This document shows positions 5,046-62,209 of a stretch of DNA of 62,209 nucleotides, piece after piece. Source of the stretch: a virus (Duplodnaviria > Caudoviricetes); IMG/VR virus record IMGVR_UViG_3300032245_001172, positions 1 through 62,209 of that record; one strand, given 5' to 3'. A program made the translations under genes and the position numbers. Positions within the stretch are counted from its first letter, which is position 1, and each line of letters opens with the position of its first letter. A model generated the notes under the pieces. It saw only the letters and a program-made list of their open reading frames with translations. It was not told the origin of the DNA and did not search any database.

Positions 5046-5276
5046 ATGGAAACAATACAAATACAAGTAACAAAATTATTTCAAATACTATCTCGTAGAG
5101 GAATGACACAAAAAGATTTACATAATCTTATTGCTCAAACTAATAATGGAGAAAACGTATCTATGTATATATTAAACGAAATCATAAATGGAAAAAGAAA
5201 AAACTTCAACATCAAAACATTAAAACTTATTAAAAACGCACTTCAAGTATCGTTTGATGATTTAATAGATGAATAA
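5046..5276 (+). CDS. XRE/Cro-like HTH regulator
   Basis: RGMTQKDL...LNEIINGKRKN...TLKLIKNALQVSFDDL. Confidence 0.8.
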   Translation: METIQIQVTKLFQILSRRGMTQKDLHNLIAQTNNGENVSMYILNEIINGKRKNFNIKTLKLIKNALQVSFDDLIDE

Positions 5277-5947
5277 TGGATTTTTTACTTTTTATAAAAG
5301 ATTTAAGGTTAAAAAATAAATTGTATTCAGAAATATGGTTAAACATATTTATGCAATATAATGATGAAGATGAAAAAACCATAAATATTTATACTCCAGT
5401 TGGAACAAACGCAAGAACATTTTACAGAATTATTGATTATGGTATAAAATCATTTAATGAAAAAATGAATAACTATAATTTAGAAAAGCAAAGAGGTAAA
5501 ATTATTGTAACAAAAATTGTAGAGAAAACCAAACCAAAAACAATTACTAAAAAAACTTCACCTAAAATTCACCCAAAAACATTTGAAGTTGATACAATAA
5601 AAACTTATGAAGAAAATATTTATTCTGAAATTGTAAATTATCTAAATGTAACTGCTGGAAAAAATTTCAAACCAAATTTAAGATTAGCACAAACAAAAAT
5701 TGATGAAAGATTGAAAGAAGGATATTTGCCAGAAGATTTTAAAAAAGTAATTGACATTAAATGCAAAAAATGGTTAGGAACTAAATGGGCAGATTATTTA
5801 ACACCAACAACATTGTTTGGAGATAAGTTTGGAATTTATTTAAACGAAAACATTAATAGTAATAAAACTAAAAAAGAAAAAACGTATGACACAATTATCA
5901 AATCCACAGAACTCGGATGGAATGATAGTAAAGGAGAATCTAAATAG
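5276..5947 (+). CDS. replication initiator-like protein with conserved phage C-terminal domain (Phg_2220_C-like)
   Basis: IVNYLN..AGKNF...FKKVIDIK...W...YLTPTTLFGDKF..YLNE. Confidence 0.75.
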   Translation: MDFLLFIKDLRLKNKLYSEIWLNIFMQYNDEDEKTINIYTPVGTNARTFYRIIDYGIKSFNEKMNNYNLEKQRGKIIVTKIVEKTKPKTITKKTSPKIHPKTFEVDTIKTYEENIYSEIVNYLNVTAGKNFKPNLRLAQTKIDERLKEGYLPEDFKKVIDIKCKKWLGTKWADYLTPTTLFGDKFGIYLNENINSNKTKKEKTYDTIIKSTELGWNDSKGESK

Positions 5948-9549: not shown

Positions 9550-9622
9550 AAATAAATTTTGTCAAACCAAAAACTTTTATTATATTTGAAAATTAAACCA
9601 AGAAACTTAAACAAATAAAATT

Positions 9623-10504
9623 ATGCCAAAAACATTAACACCAGAGGATATTAAACTTCACGTTACAGATATTTTTAATTTTATATCAGAAGAATCAAAA
9701 ACCTATACTCAAATTCAAAGACACAATTGGAGATTTAGGTCGATTAAAAATATTTTAATTAAAAAAAATATTATTTTTTCACATTACAAAATTAATTCTA
9801 AAAAAACTTATTATAAAAGTGCTTTTTTAAAATTACAACCACATCATCTTTTGCATATTTTAGAAGAATTTAAAAATGATATTAAAAAACAGAATGAAAA
9901 ATTAGTTGATAATTTTATAAAAAAAGATAGAACAACTGAATTAGAACATAATAAAAAAGAAACACTTGAAGAATGTAAAAATTCTGAATATGAAAAAGAA
10001 ATTAAAGATTTAGAATTTAAATTAAATATTGAAACTACTGCAAATGGATGTTTTAAACAAAGAATTAGAGAATTAGAGAAAATTCCATCATCTGCAAGAG
10101 AATTAAAATCTATACATGAAAAAGAAATTAAAAAATTAACAAATCAAATTGAAGTAGCTAATAAAGATTTAGAAACATTCCAAGAAGAACAAATTAAAAT
10201 AAAAGAAGCAATAGATGATTTATCTAAAATAAATGATTTTTTAGAAAATCAAAACAAAAAATTGTTGTCTGAAAAACTTGAATTAGATTCTAAATTAAAA
10301 CAACAAATTCAAGAACACGCTAAAAGATTTGATGAACTTGTTAAAGAAAGAAACAACTACATTTCAGAATATTCAAATTATATAAATGAAAAACTTGTTG
10401 AGATTGCAGATTTAAAAAATAAATTATTAAAAGAAAATAAAATTGTTTGTTACAAAATTTTTGGAATAACAATTTTTAAAGTAACCACAAATAAAAGAAA
10501 CTAA
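9623..10504 (+). CDS. coiled-coil protein
   Basis: Long heptad-rich K/E/L region; TATATTTG at 9581. Confidence 0.7.
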   Translation: MPKTLTPEDIKLHVTDIFNFISEESKTYTQIQRHNWRFRSIKNILIKKNIIFSHYKINSKKTYYKSAFLKLQPHHLLHILEEFKNDIKKQNEKLVDNFIKKDRTTELEHNKKETLEECKNSEYEKEIKDLEFKLNIETTANGCFKQRIRELEKIPSSARELKSIHEKEIKKLTNQIEVANKDLETFQEEQIKIKEAIDDLSKINDFLENQNKKLLSEKLELDSKLKQQIQEHAKRFDELVKERNNYISEYSNYINEKLVEIADLKNKLLKENKIVCYKIFGITIFKVTTNKRN

Positions 10505-10505
10505 A

Positions 10506-11795
10506 ATGGCAAAAGTTATTACAATGGCAACTCCATCCAAAAAAACTAAAAAAGATAAAATTACAAATGTTTTATTTTTCGGAGATTTTAATTGCACAAC
10601 TGGATTTGGAAATGTATCAAAACAATTAGTTGATAATTGGTCAAAAGACAAAAAACTTAAATTAACTATTTTCGCAATTAATGATTTTTCTGAAAAAGCA
10701 TATCAGTATGCAGATAATGTAATGGTAATACCAGCACTTTCTATTTCAGAAACAAAAAAAGATGTGTATTGTAGAATTGAATTTCTAAATTTATTATATC
10801 AAAATGATTTTGATGTTGTTTTTTGCTTAAACGATATTGAAATATTTAATGAAATGGGAGAGCATTTACAAAATGTAAAATCCGAAAAAAGAAAACAAAA
10901 CAAACCTAATTTTAAATCAATTGTTTATTTTCCAATTGATTCAGAGCCAAGACTTAATGATTTAAAGATACTTTCATTTTTTGATGAAGTAGTTACATAC
11001 ACAGAATATGCAAAAAATGTAATGAAACCATTAATTTCAGAAACACAATTTAAAAAAATAAAAGTAATTCCACATGGTTGTGATACAACAAACTTTTTTC
11101 CATTAAATGATTTTGAAAAAGCCAAAATTAAAGAAGAAAAATTTGGAGCAGATAAATTTGTGTTTGGAAGTGTAAACAGAAATTCAGCAAGAAAAGATTT
11201 AGCAAGTTTAATAATCGGATTTGCTATGTTTAAACATAAAAATCAAGCAAATGATGCTATTTTATACTTGCATTGCAATCCATTAGACAAAGCTGGAATA
11301 AACGTTTATAGACTTTGTGAAAGAGTTGGTTTAGAAGTAGGTAAAGATGTAATTGTACCAACTGATTTTAACGAAAATAATGGTGTTTCCGAATCTGAAT
11401 TAAATAAGATTTATAATTCATTTGATTGTTTTATAACTACTACTACTGCCGAAGGTTGGGGATTAACTATTACAGAAGCTATGGCAACAAAAACGTTTGT
11501 AATTTGTCCAAAACATACTTCACTTGCAGAAATTTCAGATAATGGATTAAATACACTTAATTTTATGTTCGACCAGCAATCAGTTTTTGTAAATGATTTT
11601 GAAAAAATTAGATTTACAACAAATCCAAAAGAAGTGGTTACAGTATTAGAAGTTGTTTATGGTTTACATAAAGAACCAGAAGAACTAAAAGATATGGTTA
11701 GAGCAAAAATTGAAAATGCTTATAAAAAAGTTTCTGGAATGAAGTGGGAAACAATTGCTAAAAAATTCAAAGACTTAATTTACAAATTATCATAA
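10506..11795 (+). CDS. glycosyltransferase family 4 (GT-B)
   Basis: TGFGNV, IPHG.D, VNRNSARK, EGWGLTITEAMA. Confidence 0.9.
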   Translation: MAKVITMATPSKKTKKDKITNVLFFGDFNCTTGFGNVSKQLVDNWSKDKKLKLTIFAINDFSEKAYQYADNVMVIPALSISETKKDVYCRIEFLNLLYQNDFDVVFCLNDIEIFNEMGEHLQNVKSEKRKQNKPNFKSIVYFPIDSEPRLNDLKILSFFDEVVTYTEYAKNVMKPLISETQFKKIKVIPHGCDTTNFFPLNDFEKAKIKEEKFGADKFVFGSVNRNSARKDLASLIIGFAMFKHKNQANDAILYLHCNPLDKAGINVYRLCERVGLEVGKDVIVPTDFNENNGVSESELNKIYNSFDCFITTTTAEGWGLTITEAMATKTFVICPKHTSLAEISDNGLNTLNFMFDQQSVFVNDFEKIRFTTNPKEVVTVLEVVYGLHKEPEELKDMVRAKIENAYKKVSGMKWETIAKKFKDLIYKLS

Positions 11796-11801
11796 ACCAA
11801 G

Positions 11802-11840
11802 AAACCAATTGCAAGGATAAATGCTACAAATACTATGGAA
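11802..11840 (+). repeat. 39-bp gene-leader repeat, copy 1
   Basis: AAACCAATTGCAAGGATAAATGCTACAAATACTATGGAA, ending in the ATG GAA of ORF 11835. Confidence 0.95.
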
Positions 11841-12074
11841 ATTACAGATTTATGGGTAAAAGTAACATACGAAGTTAGATTAGGAGATTTAGAAATGCCA
11901 CAAGAAGTTTTTGACGAAATTAATGAAGCTATTGATAGGGGTCGTGATATAGATACTATGTCGGGTAATCAAGATGATGATTATATAAACGCTTCTGAAT
12001 GGCTTACAGATAATATAAAAGAAAAAGATTGTATGGAATGGAAAGTTGAAATTATAGAAATAATTGAAAAATAA
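11835..12074 (+). CDS. acidic hypothetical protein (cassette 1)
   Basis: ATG supplied by repeat; D/E-rich. Confidence 0.75.
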   Translation: MEITDLWVKVTYEVRLGDLEMPQEVFDEINEAIDRGRDIDTMSGNQDDDYINASEWLTDNIKEKDCMEWKVEIIEIIEK

Positions 12075-12078
12075 TACA

Positions 12079-12117
12079 AACCCAATTGCAAGGATAAGTG
12101 CTACAAATATTATGGAA
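12079..12117 (+). repeat. 39-bp gene-leader repeat, copy 2
   Basis: AACCCAATTGCAAGGATAAGTGCTACAAATATTATGGAA. Confidence 0.95.
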
Positions 12118-12378
12118 TTATTTGATTTTGGTCAAGCTATAAAATGCTTGAAAGAAGGTAAAAAATTATCAAGAAAAGGATGGAATGGAAGCGGAATGTA
12201 CGCTTATTATGTACCAGAAAATTCATATCCAGCACAAACAGAAATAGCTAAAAAAGAATTTGGAGAATTAGTGCCTTACAGACCTTATTTAGCTTTAAAA
12301 ACTGCTCAAAACGATATTGCTACATGGAATCCAAGTACTTCTGATTGTTTAGCAGAAGATTGGTTTGTTGTAGAATAG
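12112..12378 (+). CDS. DUF2829 / Tad2-like (Thoeris anti-defence) protein (cassette 2)
   Basis: FGQAIKCLKEGKKLSRKGWNG.GM...W.PS..D.LAEDW; true start is the ATG inside the repeat. Confidence 0.8.
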   Translation: MELFDFGQAIKCLKEGKKLSRKGWNGSGMYAYYVPENSYPAQTEIAKKEFGELVPYRPYLALKTAQNDIATWNPSTSDCLAEDWFVVE

Positions 12379-12396
12379 ATTATTAATAAAAAAAAG

Positions 12397-12435
12397 AAAC
12401 CGATTGCAAGGATAAGTGCTACAAATACTATGGAA
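12397..12435 (+). repeat. 39-bp gene-leader repeat, copy 3
   Basis: AAACCGATTGCAAGGATAAGTGCTACAAATACTATGGAA. Confidence 0.95.
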
Positions 12436-12663
12436 TTATCAGTAAACGAAAGAGGAACAATTGAATTAAAAGAAGTTTATAATCCAATAAAACTAATTTC
12501 AGATGAAAAAGAAGAACTAATTGTTTGTATGAGGGATAGTGGTTTTGAAATTATGTATCAAGGCAAAAATTATTCTTTAAAGGAAAATGAATTAAAAGAA
12601 AAGCACCTATCCCTTTAATGGAATAAAATTTGATATAAAACCCTAATAATAAAGGCAAAAGCA

Positions 12664-13623
12664 ATGAATTTAATAGAAGTAAATAAAAATTATAATACTC
12701 AAGCAAAATGCTTGGTTTTGTTGGAAAAATTACGTTGGGGTAAAAACGTAAAATGCACTTTTTGTTCATCTAACAAGGTTAGTATGATAAAAAGTGAGCA
12801 GGGGCGGTACTCTTGTAAGAATTGTAAAAAGTCATTTTCTGTGATTGTTGGGACAATTTTTGAAGAAACAAGATTGCCTTTACCTATATGGTTTCAGGGT
12901 ATTGCTTTAATGCTAAATGCAAAAAGCAGTATGTCTGCAAAGGAAATTCAACGAAATCTTGGAATCACATATAAAACATCCTATTATATGTGTATGAGGA
13001 TTCGTATTGGGATGTTAATGCCTGAAACAAAGTTAAACGGGATAATAGAGATGGACGAAAGTTACTTTGGAGGTAAAGCACGTTCAGGACATAAAATACC
13101 TGATAACGAAGTTAGTTTAGCAACTGCTACACAAAAAAGAGGGCGAGGCACAAATAAAGTTTCTGTTGTTGGAATGGTTCAGCGAAAAGGAAATGTAAAG
13201 ACTAAATTAATAGATAAATTAACAAAAAGAAATTTATTATTTATGCTTAAATCTAATGCTAAAAGCGATAATTCGATTTTAATGACAGATGGATTTAAAA
13301 GTTACAAAGAACTTGAAACATATATTGACCGCCTTGTAATTAATCATTCAAAAGAGTATAGTAAAGGAATAGTGCATATCAATACAATTGAGGGTTTTTG
13401 GAGTTATGTTAAAAACGGAATAAAAGGAAGTTTTAAATCCGTAAGCAAAAAATATCTTCCATTATATTTAGTTGAGTTTGAATGGAAATTTAATCATAGA
13501 TATTTCAAAGGAAATGAATTTGAAAAGTTTCTTAAAAACGCATTATTTCAAGAAAAAGAATTAGAACATTGGAAAGCCCAAAGTTCTCAACAAATTAAAA
13601 AAATAGCGTATGGAAACGAATAA
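12664..13623 (+). CDS. IS1595-family DDE transposase
   Basis: CxxC..CxxC Zn ribbon, EMDESYFGG, KRGRGT, MTDG, INHS, HINTIEGFWS, YLVEFEWKFN. Confidence 0.95.
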   Translation: MNLIEVNKNYNTQAKCLVLLEKLRWGKNVKCTFCSSNKVSMIKSEQGRYSCKNCKKSFSVIVGTIFEETRLPLPIWFQGIALMLNAKSSMSAKEIQRNLGITYKTSYYMCMRIRIGMLMPETKLNGIIEMDESYFGGKARSGHKIPDNEVSLATATQKRGRGTNKVSVVGMVQRKGNVKTKLIDKLTKRNLLFMLKSNAKSDNSILMTDGFKSYKELETYIDRLVINHSKEYSKGIVHINTIEGFWSYVKNGIKGSFKSVSKKYLPLYLVEFEWKFNHRYFKGNEFEKFLKNALFQEKELEHWKAQSSQQIKKIAYGNE

Positions 13624-13792
13624 TAAAAAAGAACAAGAACATTTAACAACTAACTTAAAAGTTGAATTTTCTATTTGTTGTAAAAAATGCGGACAAAAAA
13701 CATCTGGCAATTATACATTAATAAGGAAAATAGATATAAATGAAGATGATAGTTTAATCCCTATTATTGATATTTACAAAGAACCTAAATAA
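13610..13792 (+). CDS. small IS passenger ORF
   Basis: Overlaps transposase end; CKKC. Confidence 0.4.
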   Translation: METNNKKEQEHLTTNLKVEFSICCKKCGQKTSGNYTLIRKIDINEDDSLIPIIDIYKEPK

Positions 13793-13989
13793 GGTTTTTT
13801 GCTAATCAATTCTAATAACTTATTTTTCTCTAATTGGTTTTTTGTTTTTATAGAGTAAGTAAGGTATTCTAAATCGTTTTCATTTATTAATACATTATTA
13901 GAAATTTTGTTTAATTCGGAATTAAAATTAGATAAATCTTTCTTTGCTTCTTTATTTGTAGGTATTGGTATTCTGAATTTAATTTCCAT
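13774..13989 (-). CDS. IS passenger, hypothetical
   Basis: Minus-strand TACATTTG near 14035 upstream. Confidence 0.5.
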   Translation of the reverse strand: MEIKFRIPIPTNKEAKKDLSNFNSELNKISNNVLINENDLEYLTYSIKTKNQLEKNKLLELISKKPYLGSL

Positions 13990-14069
13990 AGTATATATAT
14001 TAAGTGGTTAAATTTAACTTCCATTAAGTATATACAAATGTATAAAAAAGTTCTTTGATAAAATAAAAA

Positions 14070-14094
14070 AAAGCGAGGTACAATGCCTCGCTTT
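14070..14094. terminator. intrinsic terminator
   Basis: AAGCGAGG-tacaatg-CCTCGCTT hairpin with A/T tails. Confidence 0.7.
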
Positions 14095-14119
14095 AATAAA
14101 GTGAATATTATAATTGTTT

Positions 14120-14680
14120 TTACCAAGTATATGAAACGTAAATATTGTATTTAGTATTTCCGTTAATTATTGGAATTACTGATGGGAAATTATTAAATGA
14201 ATTATAAATACTAAAAAACGAGGTACTCATACTCTGAAAGGTATTGTTGCTATCTATATCTCTTAATTCAATTTTAAATAAATTATTTACATTGGTTATT
14301 TGAAGTGGATTAGGATATGTGTATGTATATACCGTATTTGCTTGAGCGTTATTAAAAGCATTAGTACTTGTATTAGAAAATAATGTTGATGTAGTTGCGT
14401 CTGAAAATAATATTGCTATGTCAGGTGCGTTTTGACTTGAGTCTAAAGGAACATAATCCCAAAAACCAGTTACTGCGGAAGGGTCTGTTGCAGGAAAACT
14501 AACAATTTCAATTTTAGAAATAGAAATTTTAGTTGGTGTTACTTGAATTGAGCAATTGCTTCCTGTGTAACCTTGAGGACAATTTGGAACAGGACTTGAA
14601 TTTGTTTCAGAATCTTCAGAACAACTAAAAGCCGTTAAAATTAAAAATAAAACGAATGATTTTTTAAATAGTGTTTTCAT
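14120..14680 (-). CDS. IS passenger lipoprotein with EGF-like Cys motif
   Basis: MKTLFKKSFVLFLILTAFSC lipobox; CPQGYTGSNC. Confidence 0.75.
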   Translation of the reverse strand: MKTLFKKSFVLFLILTAFSCSEDSETNSSPVPNCPQGYTGSNCSIQVTPTKISISKIEIVSFPATDPSAVTGFWDYVPLDSSQNAPDIAILFSDATTSTLFSNTSTNAFNNAQANTVYTYTYPNPLQITNVNNLFKIELRDIDSNNTFQSMSTSFFSIYNSFNNFPSVIPIINGNTKYNIYVSYTW

Positions 14681-15146
14681 AAAATTTCTTGATAAACCTT
14701 GTTCCGTAGGTTTTTTAAAATTAGTTAAAAACCAAAAGCGTGGAACAAACTCCAATCTGTAACTCGGGTATCGCCAAACACCCACTCAACAAGATAAGAG
14801 AAGTCCACGCAGTTCGTGAACGTTCACTTATTAATTCTTTGTTGAGTTTTTTGAAATTGGCGATTTCGAGTAACAAGATTAATAGCTAACGCTTATGGTA
14901 TGGTAAGAACGTTTATTTGATATTCACTTTATTTTAATTTTATTTTGTCAAATGTATTAAAAAGAAAAACATAAACAAACAATAAAAAACAATATTCCAT
15001 TAAAGGGATAAGTACGAAAAGAAATGAGAAATTTTAAGAATGTAAAAAGCAATAAAGATACAATTGAAGAATTAAACACTATTTATGGAGATTGCTCAAT
15101 AGACCAAACTTCAAATTTTCAAGTTCCATCTAATTAATAAGCCAAA

Positions 15147-15185
15147 AAACCAATTGCAAGGATAAATGCTACAAATACTATGGAA
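15147..15185 (+). repeat. 39-bp gene-leader repeat, copy 4
   Basis: AAACCAATTGCAAGGATAAATGCTACAAATACTATGGAA, identical to copy 1. Confidence 0.95.
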
Positions 15186-15440
15186 AATCAAACACAAAGA
15201 GAATTAACATTCGGAGAAAAAGCAGTAGGATTAACTTTTAATCCATCTGGAGATGAAAAAGTAAATAAAGCAAAGCGATTAATGGCAGATGCTTTAGACT
15301 TGCTAAAAGATTCAGAATTAGAAAAAACAGAATACGGAAATAAAATGACAAGTTGGGAAGCAAATGTTTTTAGAACAAATGCTTTCAATAAAATTGTTGA
15401 TGCTCAAATGTCTTTAGTTAAATACATAACGTGGAAATAA
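15180..15440 (+). CDS. Acb2/Tad1-like helical-hairpin protein (cassette 4)
   Basis: TFGEKAVGLTFNPSG...AQM.LVK.ITW pattern; family link recalled, not searched. Confidence 0.55.
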   Translation: MENQTQRELTFGEKAVGLTFNPSGDEKVNKAKRLMADALDLLKDSELEKTEYGNKMTSWEANVFRTNAFNKIVDAQMSLVKYITWK

Positions 15441-15443
15441 GAT

Positions 15444-15656
15444 ATGGAAAATACATTTTTAGACAGATTAAAAACTGAAAAAAACGAACTACTTGATAAA
15501 ACAACTAAATTAGGAATGTTTTTAACATCCGATAAATCAAAAGAATTGTCAGATGCAAATATTTTATTATTAAAGCAACAATTTGAGATAATGAACGCTT
15601 ATTTAAATATTTTGATAATTAGAGTAGAATTATTAGAAGCGACAGAAAGTAAATAA
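15444..15656 (+). CDS. crAss001_48-like protein
   Basis: RL..EK.EL..K..KL..F...LL..Q...M..YL.IL..R. Confidence 0.65.
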   Translation: MENTFLDRLKTEKNELLDKTTKLGMFLTSDKSKELSDANILLLKQQFEIMNAYLNILIIRVELLEATESK

Positions 15657-15660
15657 CAAA

Positions 15661-15686
15661 AAAAACCACCAATTAGGTGGTTTTTC
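15661..15686. terminator. bidirectional intrinsic terminator
   Basis: AAAAACCACC-aatta-GGTGGTTTTT between convergent ORFs. Confidence 0.85.
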
Positions 15687-15702
15687 TTTTTGTCTTTTAA
15701 AA

Positions 15703-15822
15703 TTATTTTTTAAAAGCACCAACTTTGTAGGCAACTAATACCAATAAGGCAATAGTAATTGTGTTATGAACGTTTGTTCCACCTAACCAATTTGGAGATT
15801 TAATGTCGAATAATCCTTCCAT
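15703..15822 (-). CDS. 39-aa single-TM peptide
   Basis: MEGLFDIKSPNWLGGTNVHNTITIALLVLVAYKVGAFKK; own TACATTTG (15854-15861) and terminator. Confidence 0.7.
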   Translation of the reverse strand: MEGLFDIKSPNWLGGTNVHNTITIALLVLVAYKVGAFKK

Positions 15823-16004
15823 CTTTTTTAGTTTTTATATTAATTAATAACAACAAATGTAAACAAAGACAATTAATATTATAAATAATAAAAAAAGAAT
15901 AATCGAAACAAATAGTAAGCTAAATTATTTTATTTAAAAGAAATTAAAAAAAGTTATTATTTATAATAAAACCATTATATTTGTTTTTTGATATAAAAAT
16001 AATT

Positions 16005-19000
16005 ATGAAAAAAAATAAATTCACAGAATCTAAAGCTGAAAACAACCCTACTGGTGGTGTTTTAGTCGGTAAAAGACAAGGGCAAACAATAATTCATAAT
16101 AAAGGAACATTAAGTGGTTATTTAGTTGGTAAAACACACGCAGAAGGTGGTATAAAAGCAATAAATAAATCTACTGGACAACCATTAGAAATGCAAGGTG
16201 GAGAAGTTGTTATTACTGCACCAGCAGTTTCAGACCAAACAAAACATAATTTTGATGGAGAAATGCTTACGAATCGTGAAATACTTTCAAAAATTAACGA
16301 AAAAGGTGGTGGTGTATCATTTGCAAAAGGTGGAGATGTTCCAAAAAAATTAAAATCAACTGGTGCAAGTTATAATTATGGAGGTCAAACTATGACAGAC
16401 CATGAAATTGTTACTTTAATAAATGGTGGATATGTAAGTTATAAAGATAAATATAACAGAAAATATAAATACAAAAAAAATACTTCACATAGTTTAGAAG
16501 AAATTGCAAAAGATACTGGAATTTCACTAAAAGGAATTAAGCAAATTTACAATAAAGGAATCGGTGCTTATAAAACTAATCCATCCAGCGTTAGACCAAA
16601 TGTTAAGTCAAAAGAACAATGGGCAATGGCAAGAGTTTATAGTGCAGTTATGGGTGGTAAAGCATCTAAAATTGATTCTAATGAATTAAAAATGAATAAT
16701 GGTGGAAAAGTAAATTTAGTTTCTGAATCAAAAAAAGGCGACCATACTTCAAGAGATTTAAATAATTATAATGATTTATTAGATGTTGGAGCAGATGGAG
16801 AAGTTGGTATGGATAATGGATTAGCTTTTGCAAAAGGTGGAAGTCTGGATTTTTTAGATGATGTAGAACAAATTTTTGCCAGAGGTGGTGCTACTGATAT
16901 TATTGTAAACAACTGGAATGATATACCAGATGATTTTAAAAGCATTACATTACCTAAACAGATTGAATGGTCAGCAAACCCAACTAACAAAGGTTTATAT
17001 GAAATTGTAAAACCATTTTTAGAAGTAAAAGACACAAGACCAGCAATGCAAGGTATTAACTTTGATGATATTGGTATTACTGCTACTAATTCACACATTT
17101 TATTAAATATACCTTATGCAGATACTGGATTTGAAGGAGTTTATAAGCCAGTTAAATTACCAAAATCTGATTTAATTTCATCCACTAAAATTGATGTAAA
17201 ATATCCAAATTATAAACAAGTAATTCCTACTGAAAAAGATATAACTAAAGTTTTTGAATATATAAATATAGAAAAACTATTAACTTATTGTAAAATTGCA
17301 AAAAATTTTTCTGGAAAAAATGAAATTGTTTTTAAAATTAATAATGAACAAATGCAATTTTTTCCAGATTATATAATAGATGTTATAACTTCTTGGATTA
17401 AACTTACTGGTTTATCTTATGCTGATATTAGTTTTCAAACAAATAGGAAAGCATTAGTATTTAGTGGAAATCCAACTTTTACTTTAGGTATAAATAGAAT
17501 TGCTTTAATAATGCCTTCTATTTATGGTAGTCAAAGAAAATTAGGTGCAAGAAACGAAAAGAAAAAAGCAGAATTAAATGTTTACTTTGATTTTGATAAT
17601 AATGAAATTCATAATTCAGATGGAAGTGTAGTAACTGATTGGAGTGAGAAACCTAAAAAAACTCGTAAGCCACGAGCAAAAAAGGTAACAGAAACTACTT
17701 TAACAGAATTACCAGAACTTATAAAAATAGGTTTTGCTGATTCAATTGAAATATTACCAAAACCAATAAGAGATTTAATTGCTTATGAGCAATTACTGAT
17801 GGGAGCAACAATGGAAGAAGTTGTAAAATCTTCAAAAAGCGATACAATAAATAGTGTTTTTGGTTGGGATGATACAACTGATGGAGGAGATTTTTGGTCA
17901 AGAATTTCTAATGGTAATTTATTTTATTTTAAAGAAAAATACGGAAAAGCTGGAGAGAAGGCAACTGAATTATTAAATAAATTTTTAGATAAAAAAGGTT
18001 TAACTACATCTGAAACTAAACCATTTGATTTAACAAATACAAAAATCTGGATTGGAGATAATCCAGAATTATCAAGAGCAGTCCAAATGAAAGCATTTCA
18101 ATTAGGATGGAGATGGTCGTCTGGAAAAACACCTAAATATTTAGAAGGAAAAAGTTTGTTTTTTTACGATGATAAGTCAATAGCATATTCTACTAATAGT
18201 AAAACTAATTTTGATAACGACCCTAAAAGAGAAATTTTTGCATCTGATTTAACGTCAGAAGCACAAGCACAATTACCAAAGACAACTTCTGTCGAACCTA
18301 AACCTATTTTAGAAAAAGTTAATTTTGAATTAGAACATAAGTTTTTAACCAGCAGAATAAATGATTTATCTTTAGAACTAAATGTAAAGAAACTTATTTT
18401 AAGTAGAGAAGAAATTAGTTTCTACCAAAGAGAAATTAATAAGTTTATTCAGTTGTTAAGAAACGTAAATGAAAAAGAACAAGCGAGTAAAACTATTTCA
18501 GAAAGATTTGATGCTATTTATTCTGTGAAGTTTGGAGATTTCAAAAAAGAATATCCAACTGCTGATTTAAAATCTATAAATGGATTAACAACAGAATTAA
18601 CAGAGCAAGAATATTTAGATGTTAGAACACCAGAATTTAAAGCATTTTTTGGAGATTGGCAAAACGCTTATCTAACAAATAATTACGATTCTGTATCTAA
18701 AGTCGTTAATGAAAAAACAAAAGAACCAATGCCAGTTTATCATGGTACAAATGTTTTGTTTACAAATTGGAAAACATACGAAACTAACAATGCACATTAT
18801 TTTGCAGTAAGAAGGGATTTTTCAGATTTCTTTGCAACAACTTGGGAAGAAAGAACTGATAAGAGTGCATTAGATTCAAAAACAATAAAAAGTTTAAACC
18901 CAAACAAAGGTACGTTTATGTTTAGATGTTTTATTGATGTAAAGAATCCAATTGACTTTTCAAAATTTGGTGTAGAAAAATATCCAGTAAGTGATTTTTT

Positions 19001-19325
19001 AACATATTTAAAAATTAATTACAATATTGCAGATTATGATTTTTGGACAAATATTAGTTTTAAAGATAAAGTAGATAAAGATACAATGGTATATGCTTGG
19101 CAAATAATTAGATTATGGCAGTCGTTTACACAATATGTAAAATTATTTACTATGCACGATGGTTACATATTTTATGAATTTTTACCAGATTCTCCAAAAT
19201 TAAGTATGGATGATGCTTCATTATGTTATTGTGCTTTTGATAGTAACCAAATAAAGTTTAACGATGCTTATGAATTTAATGCTTTGTCTAATGATTCCAG
19301 ATTTGATTTTGGAGGTAAATTATAA
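16005..19325 (+). CDS. large modular (polyvalent-type) protein with DUF5824-like, beta-clamp-like and ART-PolyVal-like modules and xxGG motifs
   Basis: GAYKTNPSSVRP..EQWAMARVYS; DTRPAMQGINF..ATNSHIL..YPNYKQVIP; VRTPEFKAFFGDW..SKVV..EPMPVYHGT; promoter at 15976. Confidence 0.75.
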   Translation: MKKNKFTESKAENNPTGGVLVGKRQGQTIIHNKGTLSGYLVGKTHAEGGIKAINKSTGQPLEMQGGEVVITAPAVSDQTKHNFDGEMLTNREILSKINEKGGGVSFAKGGDVPKKLKSTGASYNYGGQTMTDHEIVTLINGGYVSYKDKYNRKYKYKKNTSHSLEEIAKDTGISLKGIKQIYNKGIGAYKTNPSSVRPNVKSKEQWAMARVYSAVMGGKASKIDSNELKMNNGGKVNLVSESKKGDHTSRDLNNYNDLLDVGADGEVGMDNGLAFAKGGSLDFLDDVEQIFARGGATDIIVNNWNDIPDDFKSITLPKQIEWSANPTNKGLYEIVKPFLEVKDTRPAMQGINFDDIGITATNSHILLNIPYADTGFEGVYKPVKLPKSDLISSTKIDVKYPNYKQVIPTEKDITKVFEYINIEKLLTYCKIAKNFSGKNEIVFKINNEQMQFFPDYIIDVITSWIKLTGLSYADISFQTNRKALVFSGNPTFTLGINRIALIMPSIYGSQRKLGARNEKKKAELNVYFDFDNNEIHNSDGSVVTDWSEKPKKTRKPRAKKVTETTLTELPELIKIGFADSIEILPKPIRDLIAYEQLLMGATMEEVVKSSKSDTINSVFGWDDTTDGGDFWSRISNGNLFYFKEKYGKAGEKATELLNKFLDKKGLTTSETKPFDLTNTKIWIGDNPELSRAVQMKAFQLGWRWSSGKTPKYLEGKSLFFYDDKSIAYSTNSKTNFDNDPKREIFASDLTSEAQAQLPKTTSVEPKPILEKVNFELEHKFLTSRINDLSLELNVKKLILSREEISFYQREINKFIQLLRNVNEKEQASKTISERFDAIYSVKFGDFKKEYPTADLKSINGLTTELTEQEYLDVRTPEFKAFFGDWQNAYLTNNYDSVSKVVNEKTKEPMPVYHGTNVLFTNWKTYETNNAHYFAVRRDFSDFFATTWEERTDKSALDSKTIKSLNPNKGTFMFRCFIDVKNPIDFSKFGVEKYPVSDFLTYLKINYNIADYDFWTNISFKDKVDKDTMVYAWQIIRLWQSFTQYVKLFTMHDGYIFYEFLPDSPKLSMDDASLCYCAFDSNQIKFNDAYEFNALSNDSRFDFGGKL

Positions 19326-19328: not shown

Positions 19329-20690
19329 ATGAAAAACTTTGATGCACAAGTACAAGAATTAAAAGAATTAGCTTTAGAAAGAAATTTAGAAGTAAATTTA
19401 AAAATGTCAAAAATAGATTTATATGCAACAAGCAGTTATGATGTTGTAGATACTGAAACTGGAGATGTTTACGAATTTATTATATATAATAATAAATATT
19501 TATTTCAAGGAGATGATACAAAAAGAAGATATGCAGAAACATATATTCTAAAAAAGTTACAATTTGAAATGTTGTCTTATGAAGATAAATTAAAATCTTT
19601 ACAACTGGTTTCAACATTTTTTAATTTGGAAGATTTTAATAAAAGTGAAGAAAATCTTTTTGAAAATAATTTAAATAAAAGAAAACAATCTACTGAAACT
19701 TTTAATGAATTAGAATATTATATAAGATTTGACAGAAATCAAAAATTATATAAATTTGATATTCTTTTAAAAATAAAACAACAAACTGATAAAACATATA
19801 GAATAGATTGTAGTATTGATGTAATTGAAAAAATAATAGAAAATGTTAGAGAAGATGGCGTTGATGATAAGTACTATTATACAACAATAGAACAAGCCGA
19901 ATTTGATAATTTTCCAGATGTAATTGATTTTTTTAATACACTTTACGAAACTGCATCTTTAGAATTTAATAAACTTTTAAGTGAAGAAATAAAAAAAATC
20001 ACAAAAGAAGAACAAAAGAAACAACAAGAAGAAAAAGGCGAAGAAGGAGAAAAAGGCGAAGAAGGAGAAGGAGAAGGAGAAGGAGAAGGAGAAGGAGAAG
20101 GAGAAGGAGAAGGAGAAGGAGAAGGAGAAGGTCAAGATGGTGCTGAAAAGAAAGGTGGTCAAAAAGGTGGTCAAAAGGGTGGTAAACCAAGTTTAGAAGA
20201 TTTAATAGATGATATTTTAGATTCTGAAAAATCTGGTGCAGATGGTCAATCTACAAAAAAACCTAATGAAATTGATTTAGAAGATTTTATAAATGAAATA
20301 CAAAAAGGTAATGTTGAAAACAAAGATTTTACCGAGCAGTATAAAAATGAAGATTTATCTAAAAAAATTCAAGATGAAAAAAATAGTTCATCCGATGAAG
20401 GTATGTCAAGTGAAGAAGGTCAAGACGGAAAAATGGATTTACCAAAATCAGATGATACAGAACAGAAATATGATATACTAAATGGAATGGCACGTTTTTT
20501 AGATGCAGATGTAAGTGATTTAAAACGTAGATTTCCAACAGAAAAATCAATAAAATCTTTTTTCTTATCTTTACAAAGAAATGAAATAAATGAATTATCA
20601 GAATTTTCTAATTTATCAACAGAATTAACAATTCCAGAAGCGAAAAAAATATTACAAGACAACTTTATAAATGATTTAAAAAACATATAA
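19329..20690 (+). CDS. acidic protein with Gly-Glu repeat linker
   Basis: (GE)n tract; upstream of AAA+/VWA pair. Confidence 0.75.
   Translation: MKNFDAQVQELKELALERNLEVNLKMSKIDLYATSSYDVVDTETGDVYEFIIYNNKYLFQGDDTKRRYAETYILKKLQFEMLSYEDKLKSLQLVSTFFNLEDFNKSEENLFENNLNKRKQSTETFNELEYYIRFDRNQKLYKFDILLKIKQQTDKTYRIDCSIDVIEKIIENVREDGVDDKYYYTTIEQAEFDNFPDVIDFFNTLYETASLEFNKLLSEEIKKITKEEQKKQQEEKGEEGEKGEEGEGEGEGEGEGEGEGEGEGEGEGQDGAEKKGGQKGGQKGGKPSLEDLIDDILDSEKSGADGQSTKKPNEIDLEDFINEIQKGNVENKDFTEQYKNEDLSKKIQDEKNSSSDEGMSSEEGQDGKMDLPKSDDTEQKYDILNGMARFLDADVSDLKRRFPTEKSIKSFFLSLQRNEINELSEFSNLSTELTIPEAKKILQDNFINDLKNI
20061..20131 (+). repeat. (GAAGGA)n tandem repeat, ~12 copies
   Basis: Direct reading; encodes EGEGEG. 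Confidence 0.95.
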
Positions 20691-25673: not shown

Positions 25674-28600
25674 ATGACAATTAAAGAAAAATTTAGTTCA
25701 ATTGACCAAAGCAAATTGACTGCCGAACAAAAATCATTTTTAAGTAAAATTAAAAATGTAACAAAAGATTTTAGTATAAAAGACAAAGATGTTAATGATA
25801 AAGTAGAAGGTGCATTAGATAAAATGATTGCCACTTTAAAAGATAAGATGCCAGAAGCTATAAAAAGTACTACTGCACCTAAAACACCACGAAAAAGAAG
25901 TGTTATGTCAGTTGCTAAAGAAATAAAAAAACCAGAGGAATCTTTTGAAGAAGCAAAAAAAAGAGCAACCAAGAAAATTGCTGATGATAAGCAATCTGTA
26001 AAAGAAACAATAAAGTCTGAACTTGATAAATTAAATGAATTTATTAAGAAGAAAAAAACGCTTCAAAGTATTAAAGGTACTGATTTACTAATCGATTCAA
26101 AAAGAAAAGCAAAACCAGTTGGTAGAAGATTATCAAAAACTGGTAATGTGTATTATGAATATCGTGATAGTAAAACAGATAGATTGTCGCCAGACTATCC
26201 TAAAAACGCACCTTATTTAGCTGGTGGTGGAGATGTTAAATTTGTTGAAGATTTTTCAAATGGAGATGGAATACAAGTTTCAGAAAGTAAATCAGAAGAT
26301 GGAAAAACATTTTATACTGCTTTTGTAACTTCTTATCCATTTAGAAAACTAATTCCTATGAATGAAAATAAAGATGTTGTAGTAAAAAGAGCAAAAAAAA
26401 TATATTCTGATATGTTAGAATATAAAAAATCTGAAAAATCTGAAAAATTTGAATTAGGTGGTAGTCTTATGCAAAATAAAAAATTAAAGAAAAATGATGT
26501 TAATTACAATGTTACAATATTGCCAACTGGAGATTTTTCTGATACATATAATTTGATAATTCAAAGAAATTCTAATGAATTTGGAGGTTCATCTCATTCA
26601 GTTATTAAAATACTATCTGAAAAAGAAGCTAAAAGAATTTTTGATAAAGTTAATGATTCAAATGCAGAAGAAATGTATAGAATTTTTGCTAAAATGCCAA
26701 GTCATAAAAACAAAAAATTTGAATTAGGTGGTTCAGTAGTTACAGATTTAGCTGGTCATACTGGAGGTACATTAGGTACTGGAAATCAAGGTATGTTAGA
26801 TGGATTTAGCAATACTGCATATAGTGGATTAGTTGGAGAAACTGGTGCTATGTCAAGTGGAGAAATGTTTATGAATGGTGGTAAAATTGATAAAAATTTT
26901 GATTTATCTGGTTATAAAAAATGGATAACATTTAATAATTTAGAAGAAGCAAAAGAATATGTTGATATGGATAGAAAAAAATATCCAAGAGTAAAAGAAT
27001 CAGTTGTAATTAAAGAAGGAAATAAATTTCAAGTTTGGGTAATTCCAGCTACTGGAGTTGAAACTGGTAATAGAGTATATGCTAATGGTGGAGGAGTAGC
27101 AATGGCAAACCAACAAGTTATTGATGATGCTTCACAAGGATATGTAAACTATTATTTAGGAGAAGGAGCAAGTCAAGGTATTTATGCTAAAGGTGGTGCT
27201 ATTAAAAATCAATACGCTGGTAGAACACCAGAAGATGTTTGGGATAGTTTAACTGAAATTCAAAGAAAACATTTTTTATTAGACCATTATAAAAGTTATG
27301 ATACTGAATTTTTAGAATTTAATTCTGGAGAAGAATTTGAGCAAAGTAAAATTAAAGATTTACAAGATGAAGCTAAAGAAAATATTGTTTCTTACTCAAA
27401 AAAAACTTGGAAAAAGTTATCTGGAGATATTAGAAAAGCATTTACATCCCACGTTAAAGAAGGTCAGTATGCAAGAGGTGGTGGAGTACGAAAAGTAGGA
27501 AACAGAGAATATTCTTACGGAAGAAACTGGACAAACGACCATAGACACGTTAATAAAGGCGAAAACCATGAAGTTACATATAACAGAAAAGGTAAGTTTT
27601 TAGGTATATTTGCTGGTGGTGGTTCATTAACTAATGAATTTAAAGAAATTGAAGATTTTGGTAGTGAGCAATATTTTATTAGAGATTTTGGTCATGTAAT
27701 AATTGAAGATGATAAAAAAATTGAACTTGTTGTAGTAGCAAGATTAATTGACCTTGATGATTTTATGTCAGAAGATGAAATCCCAAGCGAAGGAAAATAT
27801 CAACTTGATTTTGACCTTGTTCCTAAAGAAAAATATTTAAGTAAAAGCAGAAAAAATTTAGTTAATGATGAAGATAATTCAATTTCAAGCATTACAGAAA
27901 TAAATGTAGTTAATTATATGGGTGGTTTAAGATTTGAACCATCAGATAAAAATTACTTTAAAACTTTTGAATCAGCTAAAAATTATTTGATGTCAAAAGA
28001 ATTAAATGATAAAATTTCTGGAATGGGAATAATGTCTGGATTTATAATGGATATGCCTTATAACAGAATGGGTAAAACTAATTGGGAACAATTATATTAC
28101 ATTTTAGGTTTAACAGATAGTTATGCTAAAGGTGGTTCAGTAACTAACGAAAGAAAGCACGTTAATAAAGATGAAGATTATGAAGTTAGATATGCAAAAC
28201 CAAGACCATCAAGAAAAGGTTATTTAGGTAAACGTGAATTTATGGCTGGAGGAAAAATTGAAACACCAAAAATATATGTTGCTGATTTAGAAGCATACAA
28301 TAACGGAAGATTAGTTGGAGAATGGTTAGATTTAACTGATTATAATGATGCAGATGAATTAATGGATGCAATACAAGATGTATTAAAAAAATCTGGAGGA
28401 GAAGAATATGCAATTCATGATTATGAAAATCTACCAAGAAGTATGTATTCGGAATATATGGGAGCAAGAGATTTTGCTGAATTATATGAAATGATGGATT
28501 TAGCAAAAGAAAATGATTTACCTTTGGATGTTGTAATGGATATTGTAAGTCAATTCGATAGAAGTGCATTAGATGAATTTACTGGAGTTTATGATAGTGA

Positions 28601-29057
28601 ACAAGATTTTGCAGAACAATTAGTTGAAGAATTAGGTTTAGAAAATTTCAATAGTCCAGAATATTACGTTTATATTTCTGAAACAGACAGAAGATTAATG
28701 GCTGGAGAAGAATCTGATTTCTATGTAGAGGATATTAAAGAAGAAGATGGTGGTCGTAGAATTATTGAAGAAGCCGATTTAGATTTAGATGAATACGATG
28801 AAGCTAATTCTGATAGACAAGAAGAAATGGTTGATGAAGCAACAGAAATTGTACGTGAGAAACTTTATGATTACTATTATGAAGGATTAGATGACCCTTA
28901 CTACTTTTTAGTAGATGAAAGAGGATTGTACTCTCCAGAAGATTTCTTTAAAGCAAATATTGTTCAAGTTGATTATGAAAAATTAGCAGATGCTTTAGAA
29001 GATGATTATACGTTTGTAAGACATGATGGTCAAATTTACGTTTTCAATATTAGATAA
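25674..29057 (+). CDS. GG-punctuated polyprotein-like protein with C-terminal ArdA antirestriction domain
   Basis: Ten [FY]xxGG motifs; KIYVADLEAYNNGRLVGEWLDL...EEYAIHDYENLP and acidic tail match ArdA. Confidence 0.8.
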   Translation: MTIKEKFSSIDQSKLTAEQKSFLSKIKNVTKDFSIKDKDVNDKVEGALDKMIATLKDKMPEAIKSTTAPKTPRKRSVMSVAKEIKKPEESFEEAKKRATKKIADDKQSVKETIKSELDKLNEFIKKKKTLQSIKGTDLLIDSKRKAKPVGRRLSKTGNVYYEYRDSKTDRLSPDYPKNAPYLAGGGDVKFVEDFSNGDGIQVSESKSEDGKTFYTAFVTSYPFRKLIPMNENKDVVVKRAKKIYSDMLEYKKSEKSEKFELGGSLMQNKKLKKNDVNYNVTILPTGDFSDTYNLIIQRNSNEFGGSSHSVIKILSEKEAKRIFDKVNDSNAEEMYRIFAKMPSHKNKKFELGGSVVTDLAGHTGGTLGTGNQGMLDGFSNTAYSGLVGETGAMSSGEMFMNGGKIDKNFDLSGYKKWITFNNLEEAKEYVDMDRKKYPRVKESVVIKEGNKFQVWVIPATGVETGNRVYANGGGVAMANQQVIDDASQGYVNYYLGEGASQGIYAKGGAIKNQYAGRTPEDVWDSLTEIQRKHFLLDHYKSYDTEFLEFNSGEEFEQSKIKDLQDEAKENIVSYSKKTWKKLSGDIRKAFTSHVKEGQYARGGGVRKVGNREYSYGRNWTNDHRHVNKGENHEVTYNRKGKFLGIFAGGGSLTNEFKEIEDFGSEQYFIRDFGHVIIEDDKKIELVVVARLIDLDDFMSEDEIPSEGKYQLDFDLVPKEKYLSKSRKNLVNDEDNSISSITEINVVNYMGGLRFEPSDKNYFKTFESAKNYLMSKELNDKISGMGIMSGFIMDMPYNRMGKTNWEQLYYILGLTDSYAKGGSVTNERKHVNKDEDYEVRYAKPRPSRKGYLGKREFMAGGKIETPKIYVADLEAYNNGRLVGEWLDLTDYNDADELMDAIQDVLKKSGGEEYAIHDYENLPRSMYSEYMGARDFAELYEMMDLAKENDLPLDVVMDIVSQFDRSALDEFTGVYDSEQDFAEQLVEELGLENFNSPEYYVYISETDRRLMAGEESDFYVEDIKEEDGGRRIIEEADLDLDEYDEANSDRQEEMVDEATEIVREKLYDYYYEGLDDPYYFLVDERGLYSPEDFFKANIVQVDYEKLADALEDDYTFVRHDGQIYVFNIR

Positions 29058-40868: not shown

Positions 40869-41217
40869 TTATTTAAAAGAGAAGTTTCCAACACTATTAA
40901 TGTTAAGTGTAGCATTAGTGTTGTTTTTTGTGGTATTAAACTTTTTATTTACGTTCATGGGTAATAGTAAAGTGAATTATATAAAAAATCAAATGGATGA
41001 TGTTAAGCAAGAAATTAATGAAATCAAAATTGACAATCAATCATTAGATGCAAAGTTTGAAAATTTAAATAATCAAATTCAGCGTGTAGATAAGAATATT
41101 CAGAAAAACAATACATCAATTAAAAAATTAAATCAAGATGAAAAAACTACAATTGATTCTTTTAGGGATTATACTCCTAACGAGTGGGAAAAGTATTTCG
41201 CAGACAGATACAAGTAA
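40861..41217 (+). CDS. spanin-like protein (TM + coiled coil)
   Basis: N-terminal TM and coiled coil after endolysin. Confidence 0.5.
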   Translation: MYNYLKEKFPTLLMLSVALVLFFVVLNFLFTFMGNSKVNYIKNQMDDVKQEINEIKIDNQSLDAKFENLNNQIQRVDKNIQKNNTSIKKLNQDEKTTIDSFRDYTPNEWEKYFADRYK

Positions 41218-62095: not shown

Positions 62096-62209
62096 ATCTT
62101 ATTTGTTTTTAAATTTTTGTAAAGTTTCTTTTAGTAAATCCATTTGTTCAATATTAGTGTTTCCAAACTTATATTGCATAATCATAGTTTGAGTGAAATT
62201 TAAAACTTC

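Follow-up and report, generated by a model that had tools for sequence, protein, structure and literature searches.

A 39-nt leader at the start codons of small phage genes: a probable junction of cassette exchange and a possible portable start adaptor

The virus record IMGVR_UViG_3300032245_001172 carries an array of small genes, each introduced by a copy of a 39-nt repeat, hereafter referred to as the leader, which ends in the ATG of the gene behind it. We suggest that the leader is a portable intercistronic 5' untranslated region (UTR) and start adaptor of small accessory genes, doubling as a stretch of homology for recombination; we assign a probability of about 0.6 to this reading. The stretch analyzed here, referred to as the window, is the entire record of this uncultured virus, 62,209 bp in length, estimated to be 89% complete and with a GC content of 27%.

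A pattern scan allowing up to three mismatches placed the leader at positions 11802, 12079, 12397 and 15147, on the + strand in every case and with 0–1 mismatches, whereas no match was obtained in 100 dinucleotide shuffles (0 expected by chance). These are the same four near-identical copies reported in the original prediction, a reading of this DNA made from its letters and open reading frames (ORFs). No further copy was detected in the 62,209-bp record with up to 8/33 mismatches (20 shuffles also yielded 0). The preceding + strand ORFs stop at 11795, 12074, 12378 and 15137, and the leader begins 5–19 nt later in each case, in agreement with the earlier description of copies beginning shortly past the previous stop. 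As also described, the ATG GAA closing each of the four copies is the start of a small ORF (11835–12074, 12112–12378, 12430–12618 and 15180–15440, of 79, 88, 62 (as interrupted) and 86 aa, respectively). The earlier statement that the repeat "supplies the start codon" is apt, since the conserved block runs into the first codons. The array and its immediate surroundings are laid out as follows:

9581–9588, + strand: host-type (Bacteroidota) -7 promoter box TATATTTG (TAHHTTTG scan), in the gap before the ORF at 9623–10504
10506–11795, + strand: glycosyltransferase (group 1) gene (Pfam PF00534 and PF13692; PHROG glycosyltransferase)
11802–11840, + strand: leader copy 1, ending in the ATG GAA of gene 1
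11835–12074, + strand: cassette gene 1, 79 aa, no known family (no Pfam and no PHROG match)
12079–12117, + strand: leader copy 2 (pattern scan)
12112–12378, + strand: cassette gene 2, 88 aa, predicted Tad2-like (Thoeris anti-defence 2) sponge homologue (Pfam PF11195, PDB)
12397–12435, + strand: leader copy 3 (pattern scan)
12430–12601, + strand: cassette gene 3, 5' part, cut by an insertion sequence (IS); the frame resumes at 15025–15137
12602–15016, no strand assigned: IS1595-family IS, 2415 bp (Pfam, inverted repeats, direct repeat, empty site)
15025–15137, + strand: cassette gene 3, 3' part (frame continuation once the IS is removed)
15147–15185, + strand: leader copy 4, identical to copy 1 across 39 nt (pattern scan)
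15180–15440, + strand: cassette gene 4, 86 aa, probable Acb2/Tad1-like sponge (profile-profile link via a sister group)
15444–15656, + strand: gene 5, 70 aa, crAss001_48-related (Pfam PF21825, 3.9e-17)
15661–15685, + strand: terminator-like hairpin of 10 pairs with a T-run, readable on both strands, closing the operon

The box TATATTTG at 9581 is likely to be the promoter of the operon holding the array, and the next TAHHTTTG box lies at 15976, beyond the terminator. The hairpin and T-run at 15661–15685 coincide with the end of the array, where a terminator had been predicted. Gene 5 starts 4 nt past the stop codon of gene 4 and has no leader in the window; its homologue in L167 does have one, and gene 5 is counted as an array member despite the absence of a leader here. 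Homologues of the glycosyltransferase gene are found upstream of the arrays in L006, L008, L013, L014, L018 and L019, and thus form a conserved left flank.

The leader was also found far beyond this record. Scanning with a 24-mer of its core, without the ATG, yielded 26 stretches distributed over 24 viral contigs (4 to 308 kb in length); with a broader leader pattern, the yield was 71 stretches on 67 viral contigs. The 24-mer was directly followed by YT and then ATG in 35/35 rows (including the four copies of the window, and with one locus listed twice). Of the 120 rows obtained when metagenome contigs were scanned with a 19-mer, about 25 were true leaders and the others, lying in unrelated surroundings, appeared to be chance matches; the ATG lay at a constant distance in about 24 of these true leaders and one base farther away in L142. 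The portability claimed for the repeat is therefore well founded: it is tied to an ATG in 35/35 rows, precedes 39 unrelated protein families and occurs in unrelated phage genomes.

Five genomes carrying the leader were compared. The window (G000), G004 and G005 are related, whereas G001 (308 kb) and G002 (167 kb) are unrelated to that group, and the strongest DNA matches between the window and G001 or G002 are the leaders themselves. The copies are clustered and their number per genome is low (1–6), with 4, 1, 3, 2 and 2 copies in the five genomes of 62, 70, 52, 167 and 308 kb, respectively, when up to 8/33 mismatches were allowed. No copy of intermediate divergence was seen in these genomes, the leader being either present with no more than three mismatches or absent. 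The only protein family common to all five leader-bearing genomes (blastp) is that of a 136-aa lysis-module protein encoded beside an M15 endolysin, which fits a common host envelope; the lysis module of the window (40401–41548) encodes an M15 peptidase, a coiled-coil membrane protein and this 136-aa protein.

None of 185,579 species genomes contains the exact 24-mer. A degenerate 23-nt pattern matched bacterial genomes at 17 places, six of which are true leaders, all in Bacteroidota. These six correspond to five different places (L212 and L225 share one leader and gene), held in prophage-like surroundings by three Flavobacterium, one Flavobacteriaceae and one Sediminibacterium species. Neither a 47-nt leader query nor the 5.5-kb region had a match in a collection of GenBank phage records. 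The assignment of a Flavobacterium-type host is supported by the transposase of the IS in the window, which is 91% identical to a Flavobacterium one, and by the presence of TAnnTTTG boxes; the phages carrying the leader are taken to infect Flavobacterium and related Bacteroidota.

Pooling of all sources yielded 105 distinct leader instances, in which many positions were fixed by the search patterns. The conserved block covers about 45 nt, from about -33 to +9 relative to the A of the ATG, with the consensus core CCGATTGCAAGG-WW-AA-N-TGCTA-N-AAATAYT-ATG-GAA. Conservation extends to positions that the searches did not fix (C-30 and C-29, 104/105; A-33, 103/105; A-3, 101/105), and the variable sites are limited to -28 (G/A), -18/-17, -14, -8, -5/-4 and -2. 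The extension into the coding sequence is apparent from the second codon, which is GAA in 48/105 leader-led genes versus 36/271 background ORFs from three related genomes, and from the N-terminus Met-Glu-Asn, which is shared by 25 of the 104 leader-led proteins, belonging to 10 unrelated clusters, versus 18/860 background ORFs.

The GCA/TGC stem-loop proposed for the core did not hold up, the pairing being present but only 3 bp long and the region folding no better than shuffles (z values of -0.10 to +1.03 for RNA folds of the four leader regions). Likewise, in single-stranded DNA folds of both strands, the four copies have in common just this 3-bp pairing. A Rfam search of positions 10000–17000 gave no match at the leaders and four weak matches elsewhere, all below gathering scores. 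A three-codon mini-ORF within the leader (TTG CAA GGA TAA) was rejected as it is lost in GGTAAAG variants, and the sigma-54 and IHF consensus sequences, compared with the leader by eye only, did not fit. On the opposite strand, an antisense -7 box, AATATTTG, overlaps the ATG (by eye, 7/8 positions in the T variant and 6/8 in the C variants of the window).

The locus compared among the relatives (the window, G004, G005 and several shorter contigs of their group) is bounded by the conserved glycosyltransferase gene on one side and by the polyvalent-protein gene on the other. The leader-led genes found there are as follows:

G004: 1 leader-led gene
L013/L019: 2 leader-led genes, gene 1 then gene 4
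G005/L018: 3 leader-led genes, two other families then gene 4
Window (G000): 4 leader-led genes
L008: at least 5 leader-led genes
L006: 6 leader-led genes

Both the identities and the orders of these genes vary among the relatives, and in G005/L018 a relative of gene 3 sits before the glycosyltransferase gene, without a leader. A breakpoint can be seen in L013, which is colinear with the window, with 88% identity up to position 12117 and 94% identity from position 15147. The two alignments overlap exactly on the 39-nt leader, and the window has an extra 3,030 bp (12118–15146), bounded by leaders and consisting of genes 2 and 3 and the IS. The junction leader of L013 is chimeric, its upstream flank matching copy 2 and its variable bases matching copy 4; this is the signature of homologous exchange between leader copies. 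Contigs from four DNA runs frequently break off at the leader, which is what a repeat exceeding the assembler word in length should cause, and joints in them that lead back to an earlier position do not amount to evidence for circles.

Given these comparisons, the leader is very probably the junction at which cassettes are added, lost and exchanged. The original prediction of a recombination site for the shuffling of small genes agrees with these data, as cassette number and order differ in relatives and breakpoints fall inside the leader. Identical gene content and order in relatives, or a repeat that is not conserved or not tied to start codons elsewhere, had been named as grounds for abandoning it; the relatives were found to differ in both content and order, and the leader to be conserved and tied to the ATG elsewhere. 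No integrase had been visible in the array, and none was found, with 0 matches to PF00589 and PF00239 in the 89%-complete record. An ORF resembling a homing endonuclease (N-terminus NUMOD4/HNH-like by eye) lies at 3159–3527 of L018, about 600 nt downstream of the leader array, and nearby double-strand breaks made by its product could stimulate exchange at leaders.

The 2.7-kb gap between leader copies 3 and 4, which had been included in the array without comment, is due to an IS1595-family element (12602–15016) that is foreign to the array. IS elements of this family usually generate a target duplication of 8 bp. The features of IS1595 membership were all found: a transposase ORF at 12664–13623 (+ strand) with a DDE_Tnp_IS1595 domain (Pfam, 1.4e-32), a Zn_ribbon_IS1595 domain (Pfam, 4.2e-9), imperfect terminal inverted repeats (32 nt, 81%) and an 8-bp direct repeat, AAAAGAAA, at 12594–12601 and 15017–15024. 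The element has passenger ORFs on both strands: a 60-aa zinc-ribbon ORF at 13610–13792 (+ strand), and ORFs of 71 aa and about 187 aa on the - strand, the latter lipoprotein-like. Without the IS, cassette gene 3 is an open frame of 94 aa, and an IS-free allele is present in an independent DNA run (X4), in which an 840-nt contig bridges position 12593 to position 15017 with 8 shared letters. The nearest IS transposase (91% identity) is encoded in a Flavobacterium sp. genome. L006 carries the same IS end (94.6% over 130 nt) elsewhere, downstream of its gene 4 homologue, and the IS therefore seems to have moved within this phage group, as judged from the different site it occupies. The region 14740–14900 inside the IS is visibly richer in G+C than its surroundings and has a terminator-like hairpin on the - strand (14821–14803), with no Rfam match.

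The 104 unique leader-led proteins form 39 clusters; for the 102 complete ORFs among them, the median length is 86 aa (range 33–294). The families that could be identified are Tad2, Acb2/Tad1 and HU, the last of these being the product of a single leader-led cassette in another genome, and most of the 39 families have no known function. Tad1, Tad2 and Acb2 are described, in the available portions of PMC12393519 and PMC12043709, as phage sponges for immune signalling molecules. Gene 2 is a predicted Tad2 homologue, with an E value of 6.8e-25 and a score of 87.8 bits against Pfam PF11195 (cut-off 25), and E values of about 8e-37 over residues 1–88, its full length, against PDB 8v3e ("Tad2") and 9eib ("ModTad2").

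Gene 4 has no direct Pfam match, and its assignment depends on a sister group. In the largest leader-led cluster (16 members, blastp), gene 4 is found together with proteins that pass the Acb2/Tad1 hairpin model. It is linked to its sister group by hhalign (94.7%, E 6.2e-8), and three of the four scanned members of that group pass the cut-off of PF24729 (Acb2_Tad1_hairpin). The predicted structure of gene 4 is a helical hairpin (pLDDT 85.3), for which Foldseek returned no significant match, Acb2 being found with TM values of 0.52–0.53 at an E value of 4.4, a non-discriminating result; in VIA, Vs.4 scored Z 6.2, with a root mean square deviation of 2.7 Å over 63 residues, tied with unrelated helical proteins. 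Gene 4 is thus a probable Acb2/Tad1-like sponge. Gene 1 homologues, present in L006 and L013/L019, are viral hypothetical proteins only, and its Atlas look-alikes are unnamed viral clusters; gene 3 did not match any known family in Pfam and PHROG searches. When constant flanks were used to look for loss of the leader, all six true copies of one cassette gene had it, and a seventh match was unrelated.

Two very large polyvalent proteins are encoded beside the array, one at 15981–19325 (1114 aa, with DUF5824 and a weak ART-PolyVal match) and the other at 25674–29057 (1127 aa, with an ArdA antirestriction domain). Such proteins are typical of counter-defence proteins delivered early, and the array sits in what is predicted to be a counter-defence neighbourhood. 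In this respect, it resembles the described anti-defence clusters with Tad1, Tad2 and Acb2, in which, according to the portions of PMC12393519 and PMC12043709 available, small sponge genes lie in an accessory region near counter-defence functions, represented here by the ArdA and ART-PolyVal polyvalent proteins. No description of a shared start-codon leader marking anti-defence or other genes was found in the literature searched, most subscription journals being outside its coverage.

The position of the leader relative to transcription was assessed in 43 instances. In most of them, a co-directional ORF stops 14–51 nt before the ATG, a divergent gene is never found upstream, and no TAHHTTTG box is present in the leader or at a fixed distance upstream. 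According to the accessible part of a study of Flavobacterium johnsoniae (PMC6847099), promoters in this species have a TAHHTTTG -7 box with the start site 4–5 nt downstream, sigma-70-type -35/-10 promoters are not used by the primary sigma factor of Bacteroidota, the mean leader length is 33 nt, and there are four positive determinants of translation, A at -3, -6, -12 and -13. In the roughly 130 nt upstream of the leader in two metagenome loci (L113 and L142), there is a complete promoter, TTTG-N19-TAATTTTG, whose end lies 6 nt ahead of ATTGCAAGG, so that the predicted start site is the CCCG opening the conserved block. As this canonical promoter ends at the 5' edge of the leader, the latter is predicted to be the entire 5' UTR (about 29 nt) of a single gene in L113 and L142. 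This promoter-leader unit is conserved, and lies downstream of a small helix-turn-helix-like gene and upstream of differing secreted or lipoprotein genes. A search for promoter-plus-leader units in viral contigs gave one match, with an imperfect box. The 20 sequencing runs listed as containing this DNA included no RNA run, a result with no bearing on whether the genes are expressed.

At the start codon itself, A-3 and A-6 are present in 101/105 (96%) and 104/105 (99%) of the leaders versus 63% and 55% of other genes, position -6 being fixed by some of the search patterns and position -3 being free. The leader may well be an expression element, judging by its position and register, its continuation into the first codons and the promoter-leader units; we regard this role as an even chance, the evidence being mixed. 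In the mechanism that we propose, the leader would be transcribed as a ready-made 5' UTR and translation start, supplying the ATG and, in many cases, the first two codons as well (Met-Glu-Asn), so that a newly acquired gene would be translated independently of its upstream neighbour in a host without a Shine-Dalgarno mechanism. Homologous recombination between near-identical leaders would add, delete and reorder cassettes, within a genome or between co-infecting phages. A blastp comparison of the five carrier genomes provided no candidate for a common regulator; as they share no phage factor, the leader must act in cis or via a host component, and for the same reason whatever recognizes the G/C-containing core (-30 to -9) would belong to the host.

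Several observations weigh against this proposal. Unlike A-3 and A-6, A-12 and A-13 are almost absent from the leaders (1% and 0%, versus 65% and 55% in other genes), and structure in the start region is not lower than in ordinary genes (mean minimum free energy of -3.86 versus -3.60 kcal/mol for -35 to +25). Pairing with 16S rRNA was rejected, as the best complementary run with the Flavobacterium 16S was 10 nt including G-U pairs, and 200 shuffles typically yielded 9–10. Most genes of the leader-bearing phages lack the leader, with just two copies in the 308-kb genome; the leader is therefore not needed for translation as such, and its invariant G/C-containing core is not explained by generic features of translation starts. 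Between orthologous loci, the leader is only moderately more conserved than the adjoining coding DNA (85–91% versus 82–85% for the gene, in L008 and L018), and gene conversion could contribute to its uniformity. Finally, in the IS-free short-read contig of run X4, gene 1 is joined to gene 4 via a leader and gene 3 precedes gene 1, but this order may be an assembly chimera, the leader copies being identical over more than 31 nt, and the only firm junction in that contig is the IS-free one.

A second conserved junction, TTTAAAAACAAATAA followed by GAT ATG, was found in the same hyperplastic regions as the leader. The upstream gene takes its last codons, Phe-Lys-Asn-Lys-stop, from this junction, which abuts the following ATG; unrelated small proteins thereby share a C-terminal tail. 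There are 17 such junctions in G002 (0.4 in shuffles), 7 in G001 and 3 in the window (shuffles 0.2–0.6), and TTTAAAAACAAATAA directly precedes the leader in 31/105 instances. Sites were noted at 62099–62113 and 61910–61924 (- strand) of the window and at 74.6–79.3 kb and 84.6–85.9 kb of G002. The presence of these two elements suggests that conserved junctions at both gene ends may be a general feature of hyperplastic regions. A more far-reaching scheme, which we put forward tentatively and regard as less likely than not, would treat them as a plug system of Flavobacterium-type phages: the 5' adaptor (the leader, with Met-Glu-Asn) and the 3' adaptor (TTTAAAAACAAATAA, with Phe-Lys-Asn-Lys-stop) would allow any small gene to be swapped by homologous recombination between different phage lineages, a host component would read the leader for immediate and high expression, and the leader would flag counter-defence genes, such that most of the approximately 35 uncharacterized families would be new inhibitors of immunity.

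It could be argued that the leader is a promoter, of a phage-specific class or served by an alternative sigma factor of the host. The cassettes would in that case be separate transcription units with leaderless or near-leaderless mRNAs, and the leader would be a true functional analogue of the early promoters of the PeSL (promoter-early stem-loop) elements of T4-type phages. Anti-defence genes are typically expressed early and strongly, as would be expected under this explanation; the constant distance to the ATG is what leaderless mRNAs would need, and a promoter of their own would keep genes 4 and 5 expressed after the IS had cut them off from the upstream promoter. A sigma-70-like TTGCAA-N16-TATTAT can even be read in copy 2. 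However, its -10 hexamer overlaps the ATG, so the transcript would miss the start codon, and the region contains 42 sigma-70-like matches versus 48.4 in shuffles. Moreover, the leader has no TAHHTTTG -7 box, and the -35/-10 type is not that of the Bacteroidota primary sigma factor in the accessible part of PMC6847099; the canonical promoter directly upstream of the leader in L113/L142 would be redundant; no sigma factor or RNA polymerase is common to the five carrier genomes (blastp); and there are no terminators between the cassettes. We consider a promoter unlikely.

The core might instead be an operator, in RNA or DNA, for a trans-acting regulator controlling all leader-led (anti-defence) genes jointly, in the manner of T4 RegA with early mRNAs or of Aca repressors with anti-CRISPR operons. 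Such a regulator would account for an invariant, G/C-containing core (-30 to -9) in a genome with 27% GC, for which generic start-region features are insufficient, for the all-or-none occurrence of the copies (no more than three mismatches or absent) and for the functional coherence of the known cargo (Tad2 and Acb2/Tad1 sponges). Nevertheless, the five carriers have no regulator in common, as far as blastp, which would miss distant homologues, can detect. As for a host regulator, the exact 24-mer occurs in 0/185,579 species genomes and the degenerate pattern in six copies, all prophage-like, and a host regulator of such specificity therefore has no obvious host targets, given the near-absence of the leader from host genomes. 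The core also has no dyad symmetry past the 3-bp inverted repeat, and an operator appears distinctly improbable.

The possibility of a pure recombination linker, without expression function, kept uniform by exchange and gene conversion, and placed at gene boundaries where crossovers leave both genes intact, draws on much of the evidence given above: the breakpoints inside the leader and the one chimeric leader, the similar behaviour of an unrelated second junction, TTTAAAAACAAATAA(GAT)ATG, in the same regions, the fact that the leader is the best DNA match between unrelated phages, and the lack of a measurable gain in RNA accessibility. By contrast, the constant register with the ATG, the near-invariant A-3/A-6 and the extension into codons 2–3 point to a translation start, and in L113/L142, away from any array, a single gene driven by a promoter has kept the leader as its 5' UTR. 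In addition, the leader has diverged at 3–4/33 bases and flanking synonymous sites much more, which would need selection or very frequent conversion. A linker devoid of any role in expression is, in our opinion, very unlikely.

In an integron-like array, the repeat would be the site at which a site-specific recombinase encoded elsewhere captures and excises cassettes. The small genes do all point in one direction, each behind a conserved boundary and apparently without its own promoter, as would be expected of such an array, but this explanation is highly improbable. No tyrosine or serine recombinase is present in the record (89% complete), and the four copies have no common folded single-strand structure on either strand. 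Unlike attC, the conserved site is 5' to the gene and contains its start codon, and homologous exchange, rather than exchange at one fixed point, accounts for the chimeric leader of L013 and for the way in which variable sites assort freely.

The portable start adaptor and recombination junction proposed here was compared with known systems. The likeness drawn earlier to integrons does not stand: both have small genes in one orientation that depend on an upstream promoter rather than on individual ones, a conserved boundary and a content varying between relatives, but the array has no integrase (PF00589 and PF00239, 0 matches) and no folded attC hairpin, its boundary is 5' with the start codon and its crossover point is variable.

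The likeness to PeSL elements, which had also been proposed, stands in part; in behaviour, no other system in the comparison comes closer. According to the sections available of Arbiol et al. 2010 (PMC2839356) and Comeau et al. 2014 (PMC4122927), a PeSL is defined by three components, namely a promoter matching the host sigma-70 consensus, a stem-loop terminator that is stable, and a Shine-Dalgarno site, and a genome has about 50 of these elements. As far as can be judged from these sections, the two kinds of element are alike in being short conserved intergenic sequences that run from an upstream stop to the start codon of a small gene, mostly of unknown function, in hyperplastic regions, in harbouring the breakpoints of insertions, deletions and replacements between close relatives, and in providing the homology for modular shuffling. 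The position before small accessory ORFs and the breakpoints are thus shared, whereas the host promoter and the terminator hairpin are not. The leader has no host promoter box, stem-loop or Shine-Dalgarno use, and occurs in 1–6 copies per genome rather than in tens (4, 1, 3, 2 and 2 in genomes of 52–308 kb), the PeSL side of this comparison being limited to the same sections. It is also one sequence across unrelated phage lineages (52–308 kb) and reaches into the first codons. The leader works like a PeSL but is not one, because two defining features, the host promoter and the stem-loop terminator, are lacking.

In lambdoid phages, short conserved junctions known as boundary or linker sequences have been proposed to guide the recombination of modules, and morons are accessory genes added between core genes with a promoter and terminator of their own. 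The leader resembles these systems in being a conserved short gene-junction sequence associated with accessory genes among core genes. It differs from morons in that the cassettes here have only the leader, and the junction is far more uniform and crosses phage families. Compared with the start regions of Bacteroidia genes, as set out in the available text of Baez et al. 2019 (PMC6847099), the leader is similar in having no Shine-Dalgarno sequence, in being unstructured, in having A-3 and A-6 and in its length, close to the 33-nt mean; it differs in lacking A-12/A-13 and in having an invariant G/C-containing core foreign to ordinary genes.

If the leader acts as we propose, modular shuffling via conserved regulatory junctions, so far a feature of T4-type phages, would extend to phages of an abundant group of freshwater and marine bacteria, with a junction built differently from that of the T4-type phages and crossing phage families. 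The leader would also be an easily searched sequence mark by which counter-defence genes could be located in uncultured phages. For a host group without Shine-Dalgarno use, it would be a compact start module of natural origin, apparently independent of context, with consequences for the choice of start codons in Flavobacterium-type hosts and for expression tools for Flavobacterium.

Some other features of the window were noted. Near the left end of the record, positions 209–331 contain at least four copies of phased 11-nt repeats (GTGTCACAAGC-like), which could be iterons or a binding array, and a replication-initiation-like gene is present at 5276–5947. A long GAAGGA/GAAGAA repeat at 20008–20142 gives rise to a Glu/Gly/Lys-rich run inside the ORF at 19329–20690.

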